DNA from: Eledone cirrhosa
Lineage: Eukaryota
Reading direction: 5' to 3'
NCBI GenBank assembly: GCA_964016885.1
Contig: OZ024747.1
Location: forward strand, 22,072,001 to 22,136,000
Length of the DNA stretch: 64,000 bases
The translations under genes were made by a program, and so were the position numbers. Positions 2,060-39,211 of the stretch are shown here, in pieces. A model generated the notes under the pieces. The model saw nothing but the letters and a program-made list of their open reading frames with translations, was not told where the DNA came from and did not search any database. Numbering within the stretch: the first letter of the stretch is position 1; the number at the start of each line of letters is the position of its first letter.

Positions 2060-4419
2060 CAGGCATGTCAAACTGAGGGTCCCCCAAGAGCCGCATGTGT
2101 CACATACGTGTTGTCTGAGGGCCGCACACGACAACTAATTGTGCACATTACAACTAATTAAAGTCATTTTGTAAAATTTATTGCAGAAAAATTTGTTACT
2201 TAAATTTAGAAGCATACAATGTACATACAAATGTTTTAGCAGCATTCAAGAATACAAAGTAATGAAGTGGTTTGACAAGAAAATACAATTTTAAATGACA
2301 ACAAATACTTGCAGCTTGTAACAGCAACAAATACATTGTACAACAATTACAACAGTTCAAAACTGAACATGTATTTGCTACTATTCAATCGTTTTTAGTG
2401 TTTTGTCCTGAGGGTTGACACCTCTTTTTGTTGACAATTTTTTGTATATCTGGCTGAAATGTCTGTACAGTTCCGACTTTGATCAGAGATGACAAATGTT
2501 GATCAGCCAGCCTTGTTCTCTGAGAAGTTTTTGTTAATTTCATGAAGGAAAATAACTGTTCACACATATAGATAGAACCAAACATTGCCATAATCTTTGT
2601 GGCAAACTTTCTGAAGTTTTTTAACTTTTCAGAAAGGTATGAAAATAAAGCAGGTATCCCCCACTTCAAGATACTTTATTCTGAGTGTAGAATCTGACTG
2701 CATTTCCAATAGTTCCATCTGCAGGCTTTCTTCTGACTTGGCAATATCAAAGGTGAATGGTGCTGAGAATAATGCAAACTGATGTTCAAAAGATGAGAAA
2801 TAACAAAATCTTTCCTGAAATTCCTGAAATTCAGGGTGACTGTCATACTTAGCAAAGTTAAGTACAGAATCAGTATTGGCAGTGTTTTTCAGCTCTTTGC
2901 ACGTAGGAAAATGAACCAAATTTTCATTTGACAACTGTGACTTCCATAAGCTTAGTTTTCTAATGAAGCACTTGATGTCATCATACAACTGAGTGATAGG
3001 TTTGTTTTTACCTTGTAATTTCAAATTAATATCAGTTAATTGTGCAGTAATATCCACAGCAAAAGCCAGATCTTGGAGCCAACTTTTATCTTTTATTTCA
3101 TCTGTGTTTTGAACTTTCATCTCCCAAAACAGTTATTTCTTGTCTCAACAAATAGAATCTTTTCAGCACTTTGTGACCTGACAACCAGCAGACTTCTGTG
3201 TATAATGGAACATCGGTGAACTGATATCCATATCTTCCAACACTTGGCTGAACTGATGGCTGTTGAGAGCACGGCCTCTGATATAGTTTACTGTCTTTGT
3301 GACTAAGCTAAGCACATGATGCAATTTTAAAAGCTTTGAACACAAATTTTACTGATGAATAATACAGTGAAAATGCGCAAATGAGGAATTTGAATACGAG
3401 TTTTCTATTTTTATTCGTAACTTGGCAGTAACACCATTATGTCTGCCAACCATATTCGCAGCACCGTCAGTAGATAAGCATGCAAGTTTACTCAAATCAA
3501 AACCATAGTCATGCTGAACCTGCTCGACCTTCTGTCCTGGCTTGTTATAGTGTCATGGATGGGGACCAGTTCAATCAGTTCTTCATACATATTAAACTCA
3601 CTGTCACAAGCCCTGATGAAGAATGCAAGCTGTGCTATTCCGGTGATGTCAACGGTCTCATCAATAGCAATAGAAAAATGTTCAAACCTTGATGATACAG
3701 CCTTCAACTGCTGTTTCAGATCACCTGACATTTCATCAATCTATTCAGTAAAAGTGTTCCAGGTTAGTGAAATGTCTTTGAATAACTGCTTTCTCTGGAC
3801 ATACAATTTCAGCTGTTTTTACAAGTCATTGCTTTACAAAATCTCCTTGACTGTAAGATTTCCCACTCATGGCGATCATTCGACTGAGTTCATAGCTTGC
3901 AGTAACGGAAGTGACATTCTCTTCCTGAATTTACATAAAACAGGTCTGTTTCTGTGTCAAGTTAGCCTTCAATTCCTTGAAACACGCATTGGGCCTTCAT
4001 ATTTATCGTAAGATCGATGGTTCGTTTCATAATGCCGTTGCAGATTGTACTTTTTTGGTGTGGCGATGCAGTTGTCGAAAATTAAACAGTGTATCTTTCC
4101 GTTCACCGTTGTGCACTTTTCTTGAAACACTCGCCCTTCTTCGTTCACTTTCATGTTTCTCTTAGCTGGAGGAGCACTAGCCATTTTAAAAGAAAACACT
4201 TGAAATTTTGAAAGAAAGTTTTCTGTTTACAACTGTTAATGAGCTGCGCGTGATTCGTCGGAAATAAAAAGTAGTTGACAAAAAACGCACAAAAAAAAAA
4301 ATAATCGTATCGAAAATTTTTAAAATTTTATATTACGAAGATAAAACATGCTCGCACTGTAAAAACATTTGTGCGGGTCGCAGGTGTGCTTGCAAAGGTA
4401 CACATGTTTGACATGACTG
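2060..4419 (-). mobile_element. Near full-length degenerate hAT transposon (SPIN/GTF2IRD2-like)
   Basis: 14-bp TIRs CAGGCATGTCAAAC / GTTTGACATGACTG (13/14 match) enclose a transposase pseudogene. Confidence 0.9.
2385..4184 (-). pseudogene. Frameshifted hAT transposase
   Basis: Fragments show BED-like CLI..NLQRHY, FSIAIDETVDITGIAQL (first catalytic D), TDGAANMVG, HCIIHQ (CxxH), LQDLAFAVDI and MFGSIYMCEQLFS, with several stops and frameshifts. Confidence 0.9.
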
Positions 4420-4543
4420 GTCTAGATATGTGAGAAACGAGGATGTAGTTTATGGAACACCCAAATGATTTAGAAGTCGACCTTAAGTAGGAGCAATAAC
4501 ATTAAGAAAGACGTGAACGACACCACATCATTTTGTATTGAAC

Positions 4544-4850
4544 ATTTTGAAAGTAGGTTTATAAGAATGAATTTTCAGTGGTTTTTTTCGTAGCTGTCTC
4601 AGTGGCCCAGTGGTAGGTACTAGGGACGGCGGGGATCCTGGTCTTGGGTTCAATCTTGGTTAAGAGGTATATGTAATCTTTTTCAGTTTTTATTTTACAT
4701 CCCATAGAAAAAAACTGAAAAGGTTTACCGGGAGCTCTACTCCCGAACTCCAGACCAGTATTACCATCGTCTATGACTCCTCTAAGTAGGCCGGCGAGAC
4801 AGCTACAAAAGTTTAATGAAAATTAATGATTATAAACCTACTTTTAAAAT
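4544..4850. mobile_element. Palindromic MITE-like element with a tRNA-like left arm
   Basis: About 55-bp imperfect terminal inverted repeats (ATTTTRAAAGTAGGTTTATAA...GTAGCTGTCTC); left arm has A-box-like TGGCCCAGTGG and B-box-like GGGTTCAATC; central hairpin. Confidence 0.55.
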
Positions 4851-7606: not shown

Positions 7607-7856
7607 TGCATGGCTTAGTGGTTAAAGCATTGGGCTTGCAATCGAAAGGTTGTGAGTTCAATTCTCGGACGGGGTGATGTGTTGTTTCCTTGAGCAAGAC
7701 ACTTTATTTCACGTTGCTCCAGTTTACTCAGCTGTAGAAATGAGTACCGGCCTGCCCGCCCAGCCAGTGGGATGGCGTTATCTTATGGCTAAAACAGCAC
7801 GACGTGCTGTGACCAGCGGCGCCCATTGGCGCCCGACAGACTGGTTGGTCAAGGTG
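7607..7856 (+). mobile_element. tRNA-derived SINE family 2 (CORE-like)
   Basis: A box TGGCTTAGTGG, B box GAGTTCAATTC, core CCTTGAGCAAGACACTTTA; related copies near 24870-25090 and 30925-31230. Confidence 0.75.
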
Positions 7857-24642: not shown

Positions 24643-24660
24643 TGTATATATATATAAGAA

Positions 24661-24847
24661 ATAGAAGCTTTCGCCGTACTTTTGACTAAAGAAATTTCAG
24701 CCTGATAGTGGGGTCTAGAACCCTCTAAGAAATAGAAAAAGATGAGTATTGTACGTCAATACCCATCTTTTTCCATATCTTAGAAGGTTCTAAACCCCAC
24801 TATCAGGCTGAAATTTCTTTAGTCAAAAGTACGGCGAAAGCTTCTAT
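24661..24847. repeat. 187-bp imperfect palindrome next to (TA)n
   Basis: ATAGAAGCTTTCGCCGTACTTTTGAC... is mirrored, with a few arm mismatches. Confidence 0.88.
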
Positions 24848-25112
24848 GTCTATTTTCAAACTATGTACATGGACGTGTGTTGTCTGCTTCAGCAAAACAC
24901 TTTATTTCATATTGCTCTAAACTACTGAGCTGAAAATGATTACCAGCAGCAGCAGCAGCAGATGAGGTTTAACCCTGCGGTGGACTGGCGTCCTCTCCAG
25001 GGAGTATCAAGTCCTTTCAGTCAGTTAAACACCAATGGAACCGGGATAAGCTCCGGCTCGATTAGCCTATGGGCTCTAGACCGACTTTATCTTTTTTTGC
25101 TTACACACGCAC

Positions 25113-25150
<38 letters not shown>

Positions 25151-25153
<3 letters not shown>

Positions 25154-26341
25154 TGGTCGGCGCTACCCTTGACGTGGGAAGAGAGCTTAAGTTCGTGGTT
25201 TGAGCTGTACGAGTGAGTCAACTTGACGCGTTTCTTTTTGCGGCTTAACGCGTGTCCGTACCTTTGGAAGTTCGACTCCTTTCGGAGGTTAGCGCCCTCT
25301 CCGGGGGGTCGGTTCCGAGGTGCGGGTTCAGGTTGGCTCGGCAGGTTTTACCATACTCGGTTGGTCTGCCACATTAAGGACGAACTAATTGGCGCCTAAA
25401 ATAATGATTGAAATAAATTATTTAAAAAAATCATTTATATCCGTACGGTAGCTGGGGGCCGTTTTAAAACCAGTAACCGAGGGGTCGGGATGGGCCCCTT
25501 AGGTTTACTAACCGCAGCGGGCCGTTGTGGTAGTCCCGTGATCATTACAGCAAATCGTGACGGGATACAGGGTTGCCGTGGTGGTTCGCTGTGGTACTTA
25601 ACCACCCTCGAGGGCTGACAGGGAGCCGGGATACGCCCTCTGGATTAGAGCCGGCTCAAACCTTTTTTTTTTTTTTTTTTATCCTTGTTTTTTTTTTTGT
25701 GTGGGCGTGGAAGTGCCTGGAAACTCTCTTCCTAGCTTTTTTTTTTTTTTTAACTCGGTGAGCGGTCGGATATAATATCCGAGAAGGAAAAGTAAGACGT
25801 CTCCGCCGTTCCGCTAGTCTGGTGGTTCGCCTTGCGAAAGCGATAGAACCACCATATCCCCCCGTTGCAGGGTTACGCGTTGCTTAAAGGAAAGTGCTTT
25901 TCTTTTTGTATTATTAACAGTTTCGTTATTTTAGGAATAGGAAGGGAGTGATGAAATGGCTTCTGGAGCGCCCCACTTTTTTTTTTTTTTAGTACAATGG
26001 CACGGCCAAGGAGTTTAGAACCTCTCTGTGCGGGATTCGGGCAACAGGATCTCCGCACGGGGCTCGGTTCGGGTTGCTCACTTGGTGCGTCCAACTGGAT
26101 TGACAAAATGGCACGGCCGGGAGAGCCTAGTGTCTCGCATTGTTCGCTCGCTGAGGGGGTTCTCAGCCAACCCTCGCGGGGTCCATGGCTTGGACTGCTC
26201 TCTTGGCGTGACCAACCGAATTGACAGGGCACACCATTCATGCCATAGTTCGCTTGATGGCATTGGCCCGTGGGACCACACACTTTAAAAAAAGGGAAAG
26301 GCGTCTTGTACTTTGAAAAAAGTATGAGTTAAATGCCAGCT

Positions 26342-26345
<4 letters not shown>
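25151..26345 (+). other. GC-rich, highly structured non-coding island inserted in (CA)n
   Basis: Sharp composition shift; (CA)n on both sides; many hairpins with G-U pairs, a GAAA tetraloop and four poly-T tracts; duplicated domain at 25997-26226; no credible ORF. Confidence 0.6.
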
Positions 26346-26384
<39 letters not shown>

Positions 26385-26418
26385 ACGCACGCACGCACAC
26401 ACACACAGACACACACAC

Positions 26419-26487
<69 letters not shown>

Positions 26488-27469
26488 TAGATAGATAGAT
26501 TGATATATGAGAAGGAGAAAGAGAGAATCAGAGCAGTTATACAAGTAGAGAAATACATTTGAAACAAAATCTGCATCACTATCTTATCTTTATTACGAAA
26601 TAAATGAGAAATATTAGAGTAAATAATACGGGAACAATCCCCGTTGTCATAGATGTTAAGATAATGACCACACCTTGGTTTCATCGGTGTAATTTCTAGG
26701 AGTGATGTTAGGTGAGGTTTTGATATATTGTTTCCGAGGAGATGAGCCATAATCTCTCTGGAAGAACACACCGCCTACGATGTCTAGGTTGGGACTATTG
26801 GCCCCTATCCTAATACATTATAATTAACTTTTTCGTAACCATATCGCCATTGAAAGACACTGCTTATAATTTCCAAATCGTTTTGAAAATAATCAAGCAT
26901 TTGGAAAGATTTATTACTATAACTAACTTTCACATTATTTATCTAGTGATTGGAACATAACTCAACAAATGTTCTTACATAAAATTACGATGGAAGGTTT
27001 TTAGATAAATATAAACATTTTAAAGTGGTAAGGTTACGCTGGTTGCATACACTGAAATAGAGAAAGGCGGAGGAGGAGAATGAGGGGGGGGGGGCTATAA
27101 AAAAATTACTGATTCGTAATTACTGTTTAAAATATAATTCAAAAAAGTGTTGAAAATATTTACAGTGATATGCTTATTCTTGAAACCTCATCTTGGAATT
27201 ATTGCGAATTACAGTGTCCACCCAAAGTGTTTTGAAGTCTCCCTGAGCACCAAATACTGGAGACGGACCCGAGGAGGGTTTTTAGATAAATATAAACACT
27301 TTAAAATAAACATCTTTTGTGTCGTAGAATCAGTGCCGGTCTCATGTGGTTTGGTTTCAATAAGGTTAATAGCTAAATATGTGTTATTGACGAGTCAACG
27401 ATTCTCAGCAGAATTGTTTTACTAGAGAATGGGTCACAGATGGCGGCTAGTGATACAGCCACCAGATGT

Positions 27470-35599: not shown

Positions 35600-35911
35600 C
35601 CCAAACATGTCATACTGTGTTATGATGACTCTCCCTGACAATTACGTTAAGGATAAATGTATGCCCCGAGCAAGATGGTTGGATAACATCCATGAGCTTG
35701 GCTGGGAACGCTTGGGGATTCAGCCAGATCAGTTGGAGATGGTTGGTTCTGGCAGGACCCGCTGGGAGGAGTGTTTGAAGACTCTGTCCCCAGGAGGAAT
35801 AAGTGAGAAGAAGAAGAAGAAGAAGAAGAAGAAGAAGGAGGAGGGGGAGGAGGAGGAGGAGGGGGTTAAGAAGAAGAAGAAGAAGAAGAAAGAGGAGGAG
35901 GAGAAAGAGGA

Positions 35912-35912
<1 letters not shown>
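35600..35912 (+). mobile_element. RTE 3' end with (GAA)n/(GAG)n tail
   Basis: PRARWLDNIHELGW...RTRWEECL; same family as 9545-9830. Confidence 0.7.
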
Positions 35913-35978
<66 letters not shown>

Positions 35979-38900
35979 TGGTTTATTTAAATTAGATGAA
36001 CAAAAATTGGCCGGGCAGGCTCGGGTAATAAGAACTAATGGGTGGATAAGCGAGCTGGAACTGGAGGAACTGAGCAGAGAGAATGGCTTGGAGATGGCGG
36101 GTGTAGTATGCCAGACAAGCGAGCCGGTGGGAAATGAAGGTGAGGAGGTCCTGAGAACGGAGGAACCACCCGAAGCAGACAATGATCTGAGTACTGAGAT
36201 AAATAATACCTGGAACAGAGATACGGCCACTGAGGAGATGAATGCTGACGGGCTAGGACAAGATTCGGTTGACATCCTAAATTTAGTGGTAGATGAATTG
36301 AACAATGATAGTGGGAGACCTATGAACCTAAGATTTGTAGACAGGAAAAAGTTAAAAGAAACAACAGCTAAGGTAAACAAAGTCATCCCATACCTTGAGG
36401 CGAGGAGCCTTCACCAGTGCAACAATATCCTCAGAGCAACAGCAAATACGGTGAGGAAACTACTTGGTATAAAAGCGAGAGGAAACAACAGACAAGAAAG
36501 AGCAGAGCCGTGGTGGAAGAAGCGACTGAGTGGGCAAATCGGGGAAATGAGAAATGACATAGGAAAGCTTGAGTCACTACTGAATGGGACACTAAAAAAC
36601 ATAGGCACTAAAAATAGACTGGAAATAAAATACAAAACTAGGAGTAAAAAGCTAAATATTATCATAGAGGAATTGAAGCAACGCATTGTAGCAAAGAGTG
36701 CAAAAATCAGGCGATACGAGAACAGAGTCAGTCAGTATAAACAGAACCGCATGTTCGACAACAACCAGAAGATGCTGTTTGGACAGCTTGAGGGCAAAGA
36801 AAGAGGCAACGACTTGATCCCTGGGGCGGAGCAAACTAAAACATTCTGGAGAGGAATATGGGAGCAGGATGTTAGACACAATGCCCAGGCAGGGTGGATT
36901 GAGACAGTACAGAGGGAGATCGGTGAGCAGGCACAGCAACAGACTGATTTGAGTATCACAGTTGAAACTCTTAAGGGACAAGCCAAAAAACTAACCAACT
37001 GGAAATCACCAGGCCCAGATGGTGTGCAGGGGTATTGGATTAAACATCTAACATCCCTCCACCCGAAGCTGACGGCCATGTTCAATGACTGCTTGGTGTC
37101 GGGTGAGGTGCCAGAGTCGTTGACAAAAGGTACCACAGTTCTGATAATGAAAGACCGAATCAAGGGTAATGATGCTACCAACTATAGACCTATCACATGT
37201 CTGCCCGTAATGTGGAAACTGTTGACGAGCATTGTGTCTGAGGAAATCTACCATCACCTCCACACAAACAACTTGTTACCGGACGAACAGAAAGGATGCC
37301 GAAAGAAGTCACGTGGTACAAAGGACCAGTTGCTTATTGATAAGATGGTAATGGGGAATTGCAGGAGGAGACACACTGATCTTGCCATGGGATGGATAGA
37401 CTACAGAAAGGCATTTGACATGGTGCCTCATTCCTGGATCACCAAAAGCCTGGAGATCTTCAGGGTGGCGGATAACATCAGACAGTTGCTAGGCAGGAGT
37501 ATGGGGTCCTGGGAGACAGAGTTGACATCAACTGGAGTATCCTTGGGAAGCGTGAAGATCAAGAGAGGTATCTTCCAGGGAGATAGCCTGTCCCCTCTGT
37601 TGTTTGTCCTTGCTCTGATGCCCTTGACCATTATGCTGCGAAAAGTGAGAGCAGGATACAAGTTGGGAAGGGGAGAGCTTACCATCAATCACCTCCTCTT
37701 CATGGACGATCTTAAGCTCTTCGGGAAAAGTGAGAAGGAGTTGGATGTGCTTGTTGACACTGTCCGTATTTTCAGCAGTGATATATGTATGCAGTTTGGT
37801 ATTGGTAAATGTGGAGTCATTGTGATGAAGAGGGGTAGGTTGAGCAGAAGTAACGGGATCCAGATACCAACAGGTGAGATGATAAAGGAAATTGACTCTG
37901 AGGAAGGATACAAGTATTTGGGCGTTCTGGCGGCTGATGGCATAAAGAACAAAAAAATGAAGGAATTGTTAAGAACTGAATACATTCGGAGAGTAAGGAG
38001 CGTATTGAAGTCACATCTGAACAGCAGAAATGCCATAAGCGCAGTAAATTCCCGAGCTGTGTCTATTATTAGGTACAGTGCGGGAATTCTGAGATGGAAT
38101 GTTGCTGAACAGAAAGAAATGGATAGGAAGACTAGGAAGCTATTGACTATCTACAACATGTTCCACAAGAGGAGTGATGTCGATAGACTCTACCTAAGGA
38201 GATCTGAGGGTGGAAGAGGTCTTATCAGCATAGAGGACTGTGTTCAGATGGAGAAAAACAACCTATACAAATACGTGACCTATAGTAAGGAGCCAATGCT
38301 CAGAGCTGTACTGAAGGAGGGGACAGTAGGCCAGGGGATGTCCAGGGAGGAAATAACATCAAGGAGGAAGAGCAGCCTTAAGGGAAAACCCCTTCATAGT
38401 ACCTTCTTTGAGAAAACTGAATTTAGAGATCCACAGACATGGAACTGGTTGAGAAGAGGAGACCTCAAAAAGGCTACAGAAGGAATGCTAATGGCTGCGC
38501 AGGAGCAGGCCCTCAAAACGAAGTGGTTGAAGCACCATATCTACAAGGAGGAGGCCAGCCCACTGTGCAGGATCTGTGGAGAGAGAGAGGAGACTGTGGC
38601 TCACATTGTGTCCGAGTGTAAACACCTAGCCCAGACCCACTATAAGGGCTGGAGACACGATGTGATGGGCAGGGTGATCCACTGGCACCTGTGCAAAGTA
38701 AACAATCTACCACATTCTGAGAAATGGTATGAGCATAGGCCAGAGGCGGTGATGGAGAACAATCAGGTGAAGGTGCTGTGGGATTTTAGGATACAGACGG
38801 ACAAAAAACTGGAACACAATAGACCTGACCTGGTGGTTGTGGACAAAGAAAAAAGATCGTGCCTGATTGTGGATGTGGCCTGCCCGTTCGACACGAGAGT

Positions 38901-39211
38901 GCAAGAGAAGGAGAGGGAGAAAATTAACCGATACCAGGACCTAAAGTGGGAGGTGAAAAGGATTTGGAACTGCCATGAAGTCAAAGTGATCCCGATTGTC
39001 ATAGGCGCACTGGGGACTATCTCCAAAAGTTTCCAGGGATGGTTAAAGAAAATCGGCCCCTTCACGCTTTTTGGAACGCTTCAAAAGGCATGCTTGCTTG
39101 GAACAGCAAGAACCCTCCGATACGTCCTGAATATCTGAGGCTGCAGGTAGTGGCTTGATATTCAATCCAACGGACTTTCCAGTTAACCAACATCAATGAC
39201 TGAGATTCAAG

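Follow-up and report, generated by a model that had tools for sequence, protein, structure and literature searches.

Tandem hairpin units in the 3' UTR of a non-autonomous R2 element of the octopus Eledone cirrhosa

The closest described counterpart of the element considered here is R2Dwi_SIDE of Drosophila willistoni, which according to its description (PMC3414825) is a short, ORF-less element inserted at the 28S R2 site with variable 5' junctions, and which combines a 5' HDV-like ribozyme with the 3' UTR of a co-resident R2. In the literature searched, the coverage of which is partial, R2 SIDEs are reported from Drosophila only and are called uncommon there; a lepidopteran CR1 SIDE has been reported besides them. 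With respect to the 3' end of R2 elements, two papers indicate that the A-clade R2 proteins of birds bind a pseudoknot-hinge-stem structure with a GGAAAAG motif (PMC11601368), and that the last 65-68 nt of these avian elements suffice for reverse transcription (PMC12222951, PMC11601368).

The window, i.e., the whole stretch of 64,000 nucleotides from Eledone cirrhosa that was analysed, contains a copy of a 1.2-kb element which resembles R2Dwi_SIDE in these respects, its ribozyme being predicted, and is classed as an R2 SIDE on account of the 28S target of most copies, the homology of both its ends to a co-resident R2 and the loss of the ORF. An octopus R2 SIDE with a variable-number hairpin expansion looks previously unreported, and judging from titles and opening lines of abstracts, none of the literature searched deals with tandem modules in the 3' UTR of R2. 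The units as such are probably unremarkable expansions of the 3' UTR. A diversified SIDE family (copies 77-100% identical) occurring in a cephalopod together with an A-clade partner would offer a naturally occurring template RNA that has been selected to be used in trans, as R2-based gene-insertion methods try to engineer, and its natural alleles with 1, 3 and 5 stems bear on whether structure upstream of the pseudoknot alters the choice or the stability of the template.

The element, its copies and its autonomous partner

The features recognized in the element are collected in Table 1.

Table 1. Coordinates of the features of the element in the window, with the basis of each assignment
Feature	Coordinates	Strand	Basis
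Whole non-autonomous R2 element (SIDE), about 1.2 kb, ORF-less	25150..26345	+	18 genomic matches, common ends, 28S R2-site flanks
Predicted HDV-like ribozyme	25148..25396	+	P1, P2, P3-L3-P3, J4/2; P2 covariation
Decayed remnant of R2 ORF start	25401..25657	+	72% identity to L055 over 25434-25503; rest by eye
Upstream part of R2 3' UTR	25685..25990	+	72% identity over 200 nt (L055 3971-4170 of 4570)
U1: long hairpin (25998-26093) and leader of the next module (26094-26105)	25997..26105	+	Repeat search, folding, alignment
U2: branched-apex hairpin (26109-26214) and leader of hairpin H (26215-26226)	26108..26226	+	Repeat search, folding, alignment
Leader and hairpin H, the module form common to autonomous R2s	26215..26266	+	Once in L053, L057, L095, L096
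Predicted pseudoknot (first helix GTGG/CCAC, second helix CC/GG) with a GGGAAAGG hinge	26270..26301	+	Pairing of 94% and 92% in the two helices
3' end with terminal stem-loop (core 26305-26328)	26302..26345	+	Two-sided changes in 6/10 pairs

At least 18 genomic matches, 78-100% identical, were obtained with a 230-nt query covering both units, and in 18/18 the query is flanked by other parts of the element, the boundaries of which were placed at the ends common to the copies (25147-25150 and 26343-26345). The 28S R2 target adjoins the 5' end in 14 of the 18 copies and the 3' end in 14; the 5' end of L018 also adjoins 28S sequence, as seen through L036, and in three of the 18 the 3' neighbour is the 5' end of another R2. 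The window copy lies off-target between (CA)n tracts, and its longest stop-free frame on the + strand counts 89 codons. It corresponds to positions 17-269 and 3971-4559 of the 4570-nt autonomous-type copy L055, with an identity of 87-90% at the 5' end, and of 72% (200 nt) and 88% (last 133 nt) at the 3' end; the internal deletion junction is located near 25658-25685.

Among the 15 copies flanked by rDNA, 10 distinct 5' junctions were distinguished, including 28S duplications and perhaps some later point changes, and several kinds of triplets occur at the 3' junctions. The distinct 5' junctions, along with the off-target copy, support repeated retrotransposition, and rDNA recombination is also involved where near-identical copies occupy adjacent rDNA units (L012-L014, L015-L017). 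The window copy is probably inactive because a C>A change at 26280 breaks one pair of the pseudoknot and because it resides outside rDNA. Read-contig depth, which is not equivalent to copy number, amounts to about 110-210 for L015-type variants, compared to 11-13 where the segments match the window copy exactly; a metagenome scan with the SIDE junction pattern gave 0 matches.

The SIDE is predicted to keep the 5' HDV-like ribozyme fold of the co-resident R2. Helix P1 (25148-25154 with 25179-25185) retains 6/7 pairs in the window copy, its 5' strand in rDNA copies being the 28S-derived CTCTCTT, and in many R2s P1 is built from 28S sequence, as stated in PMC3774820. P2 associates 25159-25165 with 25390-25396, P3-L3-P3 covers 25166-25178, J4/2 reads GAACTAA (25382-25388) and a one-pair P1.1 is present. 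Over 10 copies, 96.1% of the cells are paired and 4/7 pairs of P2 display two-sided changes; four of five measures were reached by 0-1 of 500 shuffles, the fifth by 208/500. L3 consists of UUGACGU and not of the CCUCCUCGUGG-type core quoted in PMC5035012. In the stretch 25166-25187, AAGAGAG-CU comes after this L3, and P1.1 has G-C in place of the usual C-G. Among published R2 5' ends, the same register is visible in octopus, scallop and mussel, the G-C swap being common to octopus and scallop, whereas mussel R2 possesses a canonical CC/GG P1.1 where the octopus has the swap.

Longer relatives of the element were obtained by a search with its 5' part. On sequence comparison, both ends of the SIDE belong to the R2-1_ECi family (family A, three-zinc-finger), an autonomous partner already published. 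L053 contains a frame of 995 codons in which a reverse transcriptase domain was recognized (RVT_1, E 1e-30), along with three zinc fingers and a Myb-like motif identified by eye; its start matches R2-1_ECi by eye over roughly the first 400 residues and 400 nt, and the ORF length of 995 agrees with Table S2 of PMC13188248. No uninterrupted ORF combining reverse transcriptase and endonuclease was found among the family-A copies examined. The frame of L053 (1452-4436) stops before the zinc knuckle and endonuclease region present in other copies, so that L053 looks internally deleted.

Some further observations concern the organization of R2 elements in this genome. An internal copy, about 100 nt long, of the 28S sequence located upstream of the R2 site occurs in L003, L006, L049 and L054 at the position equivalent to 25510/25511 of the window. 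Within the internal 28S copy of L049 (G000:C7:29285770-29292060) resides a full-length R2 of a second family (family B, about 48% protein identity), which suggests that the SIDE can serve as a landing pad; fish R2 UTRs with 28S-derived pieces offer a precedent, according to PMC5035012. The 3' UTR of this second-family R2 (L049:5570-6680, about 1.1 kb) contains about four tandem repeats of some 130 nt with 72% identity in a self-BLAST, whereas TRF reported no array there, and it includes a leader-like ACCGGATTAGACA. A second internally deleted R2 (L060:2157-2683, on G000:C18), known from one copy of about 520 nt joined at a 10-nt microhomology, displays the leader and hairpin H without tandem units. 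Both at L060-L063 (G000:C18:15.04-15.08 Mb) and at L057, R2 elements of several families follow each other head-to-tail, an arrangement consistent with template jumps or repeated insertion. One SIDE copy (L002:1-886 / L062:1-1871) is interrupted at TTAA by a sequence that resembles a DNA transposon and includes a transposase-like frame; we take it to be piggyBac-like.

Elsewhere in the window, a near-perfect inverted repeat (24657-24851; arms of 95 nt, 94% complementary, 5-nt spacer), presumably MITE-like, and a fragment of a very high-copy repeat just left of the element (24957-25013; summed depth about 55,000-67,000) were noticed. A 1111-codon frame on the + strand (35803-39138), with reverse transcriptase and C-terminal zinc-knuckle/endonuclease-like motifs recognized by eye, is assumed to be an apparently intact RLE-type non-LTR retrotransposon. 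A weak tRNA match on the + strand (7611-7668, 29.8 bits), the sole Rfam match of the window at the gathering threshold, is probably the head of a tRNA-derived SINE.

The tandem units and the leader-plus-hairpin module

The two units had been delineated, with the limits given in Table 1, by a sequence-only reading of the window, and their existence is borne out by the search for repeats as well as by folding. The common start corresponds to an 11-nt ATGGCACGGCC at 25997 and 26108, the sole two matches in the 64 kb with at most one mismatch (0.42 expected), and the common end to a 15-nt CCAACYGRATTGACA, exact at 26091-26105 and 26212-26226; the three other matches of CCAACYGRATTGACA, with three mismatches each, are at chance level. 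Folding of the + strand reproduced the basal stems described for both units, at -51.0 kcal/mol (z -4.9) for U1 and -53.1 kcal/mol (z -2.6) for U2, whereas the - strand folds less well (z -2.5 and -2.0, respectively). The apical parts, held to be different in that reading, are indeed less alike than the base, yet they are not unrelated since the units align end to end, with 70/119 identical positions in the window copy and 97/112 in L018.

Two other aspects of the initial description had to be revised. The register of the repeat is better described as a leader, ACYGRATTGACA, followed by a stem, than as a stem followed by a tail, because a third, older copy of the leader and its GGCAC stem comes next, at 26215-26266. 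The units do not constitute a free-standing RNA module but sit inside the 3' UTR of a non-autonomous R2 element, the ribozyme fold of which lies about 600-850 nt upstream. Hairpin H of the third copy has a base GGCAYG-CC / GG-CGT(G) of the same type as the other module hairpins, although in the window copy hairpin H adopts an alternative register. Only a single leader with a single hairpin H precedes the pseudoknot in L053 and in four family-C 3' ends; neither of the two is missing from any of the inspected 3' ends of families A and C. The leader and the GGCAYG-CC stem base are conserved across R2 families with about 57-68% protein identity, unlike the surrounding U-rich spacers. A genome-wide search for the exact leader+GGCAC pattern gave 15 matches, 15/15 in SIDE or R2 3' UTRs (one match for the reversed control), and thus no module outside an R2 context.

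Depending on the copy, the number of modules, read from the sequences by eye, varies from 1 to 5. A single stem occurs in L053, L057, L095 and L096, hairpin H with two partial hairpins in six autonomous copies, three stems in 14 SIDEs (with the base of U2 deleted in three of them) and five stems in four SIDEs. The third unit of these four SIDE copies comprises two small hairpins built on that same base and exists in a partial form in the six autonomous copies. A search for homologues with a covariance model of U1 and U2, as the sequence-only reading had proposed, covered the window and 16 loci; it did find the third unit in the four SIDE copies (rough E-values of 4e-8 to 2e-6) and, weakly, the small autonomous hairpin in four copies (rough E-values of 0.03-0.19). 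A tree of 13 copies, with a midpoint root only, separates the three-unit copies from a clade of two-unit copies that is well supported; since the autonomous family possesses third-unit hairpins, it is simpler to assume that this clade lost them. The losses of stems fall between repeated leaders. Homology and variable number together imply that what was taken for a tail is the leader belonging to the hairpin that follows, and that the array is an expansion of the segment located just upstream of the predicted protein-binding end.

Both tails fit ACYGRATTGACA in L001-L003, L005, L006 and L018, whereas L004 and L007-L017 depart from it. The variants ACCAGATTGACA and ACCAAATTTGACT/A occur in L007-L011 and L015-L017, on the deepest read contigs, the leader of this high-depth subfamily being changed at 2-4 of 12 positions; the tail after U1 is deleted in L012-L014. 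Base pairing between the leader and a segment located upstream or at the terminus, considered by eye, was discarded in view of the absence of covariation and the occupation of the partners in local stems.

Downstream of the module array, the two helices of the pseudoknot are paired at 94% and 92% over 13 diverse 3' ends; the fold is termed predicted here because these helices are conserved yet devoid of covariation. For the 3' structure as a whole, 0/500 shuffles reached the observed values on four of five measures. By analogy with the avian elements, 26270-26301 is likely to be a binding site of the R2 protein, and the region equivalent to the last 65-68 nt of avian R2 lies downstream of the units.

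Selection on the units and competing explanations

The evidence for selection on the units is mixed. In the window copy, basal stem and tail are identical at 39/49 positions between U1 and U2 versus 31/70 for the apical part (Fisher p=1.4e-4), in agreement with the earlier claim of a structured module with a base more conserved than its apex; two other copies show the same bias (p=7.5e-5 and 0.026), which is weaker in L018 (p=0.09). Alignment A1 was built without the near-identical L008, L010, L013, L014 and L017, and alignment A2 comprises 8 of 18 U1 and 11 of 18 U2 copies; the pair-retention test omitted L013 and L017, which duplicate other copies exactly, and the tree and region comparisons omitted L008, L014 and L016 as well. 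The pairs of U1 are kept in 98.1% of the cells, with 14 further pair types and many G-U/A-U/G-C exchanges, versus 28-55% when they are slid. On the + strand of U1, 14/23 one-sided changes retain pairing (P=0.022 under a transition-biased null), compared to 1/18 on the - strand. Under a matched-spectrum null, pair retention is not significant (P=0.14 for U1, P=0.46 for U2), and in U2 only 10/34 one-sided changes keep pairing relative to the window fold. Two-sided changes affect 1 pair of 30 in U1, a value reached by 401/500 shuffles, and 0/9 pairs in the common basal helix. With 18/96 in basal stem and tail and 24/131 in the apex, variants shared among SIDE copies are no rarer in the former. 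The 3' basal strand of U2 shows 0 shared variants in 18 sites in one clade, and in one clade the base of U1 has shifted from UGG/CCA to UGUA/UACA; the folding energy of U1 ranges from -40 to -47 in three-unit copies and from -53 to -58.5 in the UGUA/UACA clade. Weak selection for a closed hairpin fits these data better than selection for an exact motif.

The preferred reading, to which a probability of roughly 0.6 is assigned, is that the units are tandem duplicates of a leader-plus-hairpin module of the SIDE 3' UTR, and behave as self-contained folding spacers without being an essential recognition signal. From the known biology of R2, the SIDE would be co-transcribed with 28S rRNA, excised by its own 5' HDV-like ribozyme and inserted by target-primed reverse transcription, the family-A R2 protein presumably binding its RNA in trans at the terminal pseudoknot-hinge-stem. 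Slippage of the template, or an unequal crossover, at the repeated leader may have added and removed units, with selection acting on pairing and not on the exact sequence; their persistence would follow from the closure of each unit on itself, by which about 230 nt rich in G+C are prevented from intruding into the pseudoknot, and from a possible stabilising effect on the untranslated RNA. A spacer role leaves the conserved leader and hairpin H unexplained, and their conservation hints at a sequence-specific role. In this respect, the proposal that the units bind a protein, already contained in the sequence-only reading, persists as a less probable interpretation: the leader and bulged stem would form a second loading site for the R2 protein (or a host factor) upstream of the pseudoknot, multiplied by the SIDE from 1 to 3-5 so as to attract the R2 protein in trans and out-compete the autonomous RNA. 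Its best support is the conservation of leader and stem base across R2 families, along with the higher number of full modules in SIDEs than in any autonomous copy seen, the bias toward basal identity in three of four copies (p 7.5e-5 to 0.026) and the invariant 3' basal strand of U2 in one clade. The tree, in which the SIDE lineage gained and then lost two stems, the altered leader of the high-depth subfamily, the presence in three rDNA units of L012-L014 devoid of the U1 leader and the U2 base, and the sufficiency of the terminal 65-68 nt in avian R2 all speak against it, and gene conversion between neighbouring units could also keep the ends alike (30/30 in L018). It is put forward tentatively, at odds of about one to three or four, and the same holds for its fuller version, in which the SIDE would have amplified an undescribed RNA determinant (single-stranded ACCGGAUUGAC leader and bulged stem) that loads the R2 protein and wins by avidity, some copies carrying a 28S landing pad for additional R2 insertions.

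It is rather unlikely that the units are neutral passengers, i.e., a duplicated hairpin paired by descent or by DNA palindrome correction and spread mainly via unequal rDNA recombination. The covariation not exceeding that of shuffles, the matched-spectrum result, the near-identical copies in neighbouring rDNA units and the tandem repeats of some 130 nt (72% identity) in the 3' UTR of the second R2 family would agree with such an origin, for which the degenerate stick-insect R2 spread by unequal rDNA recombination provides a precedent (PMC4370867); the diversity of 5' junctions and 3' triplets and the off-target copy oppose it, as do the many U1 changes that yield G-U pairs solely on the + strand, a bias not expected from DNA palindrome correction. 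The least probable reading by far, scarcely to be entertained, regards a unit or the pair as an independent functional RNA that would act as a box H/ACA guide, cleave itself as a ribozyme or resist exonucleases. The window copy does exhibit two hairpins with an ANANNA box between them (ACAAAA at 26103) and an ACA after them (26224), which accounts for the H/ACA resemblance noticed at the outset. The pseudouridylation pocket of box H/ACA RNAs places the target 14-16 nt from the box. Across the 18 copies the H box is intact in 7, the ACA in 11 and both in 7, and, in contrast to genuine H/ACA RNAs, the boxes lie 9 nt from the stems, no 3' end follows the ACA and the whole is embedded in a retroelement UTR. 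The suggestion of a catalytic module meets a similar fate: neither strand of the units contains CUGANGA, GAAAY or TAAY, hence no hammerhead core, and an Rfam search at E<=10 over 24650-26500 gave 32 matches, 0 of them overlapping 25997-26226 (pistol, hatchet and twister-sister being covered by Rfam only). An HDV-L3-like 7-mer at 26171 in U2, present also in U1 of four copies, belongs to a helix strand, lacks a P2 partner by inspection and is altered in the other U1 copies. A knotted three-way junction allows an xrRNA to block Xrn1; U1 folds as a hairpin without branches. That no module was found outside R2 contexts also argues against an independent RNA, and cleavage within the units would sever the 3' end of the template from its payload.

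Comparison with described R2 systems

Beyond the common traits listed at the beginning, the octopus SIDE differs from R2Dwi_SIDE (PMC3414825) by its length (1.2-1.4 kb versus 529 bp) and the lack of a poly(A) tail, by its three-zinc-finger partner, by its variable duplicated hairpins and by the internal 28S copy present in some copies. Compared to the SIDE, R2-1_ECi is an autonomous-type element with one leader-plus-hairpin module, and the word 'non-autonomous' has 0 occurrences in the main text of its description (PMC13188248). With the A-clade R2s of birds and turtles (PMC11601368, PMC12222951), the element shares pseudoknot-compatible helices, a purine hinge GGGAAAGG, which takes the exact form GGAAAAG in L018 and L056, and a terminal stem at the 3' end. 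This likeness covers 26270-26345 and not the tandem units, and the second pseudoknot helix consists here of two canonical pairs in most copies.
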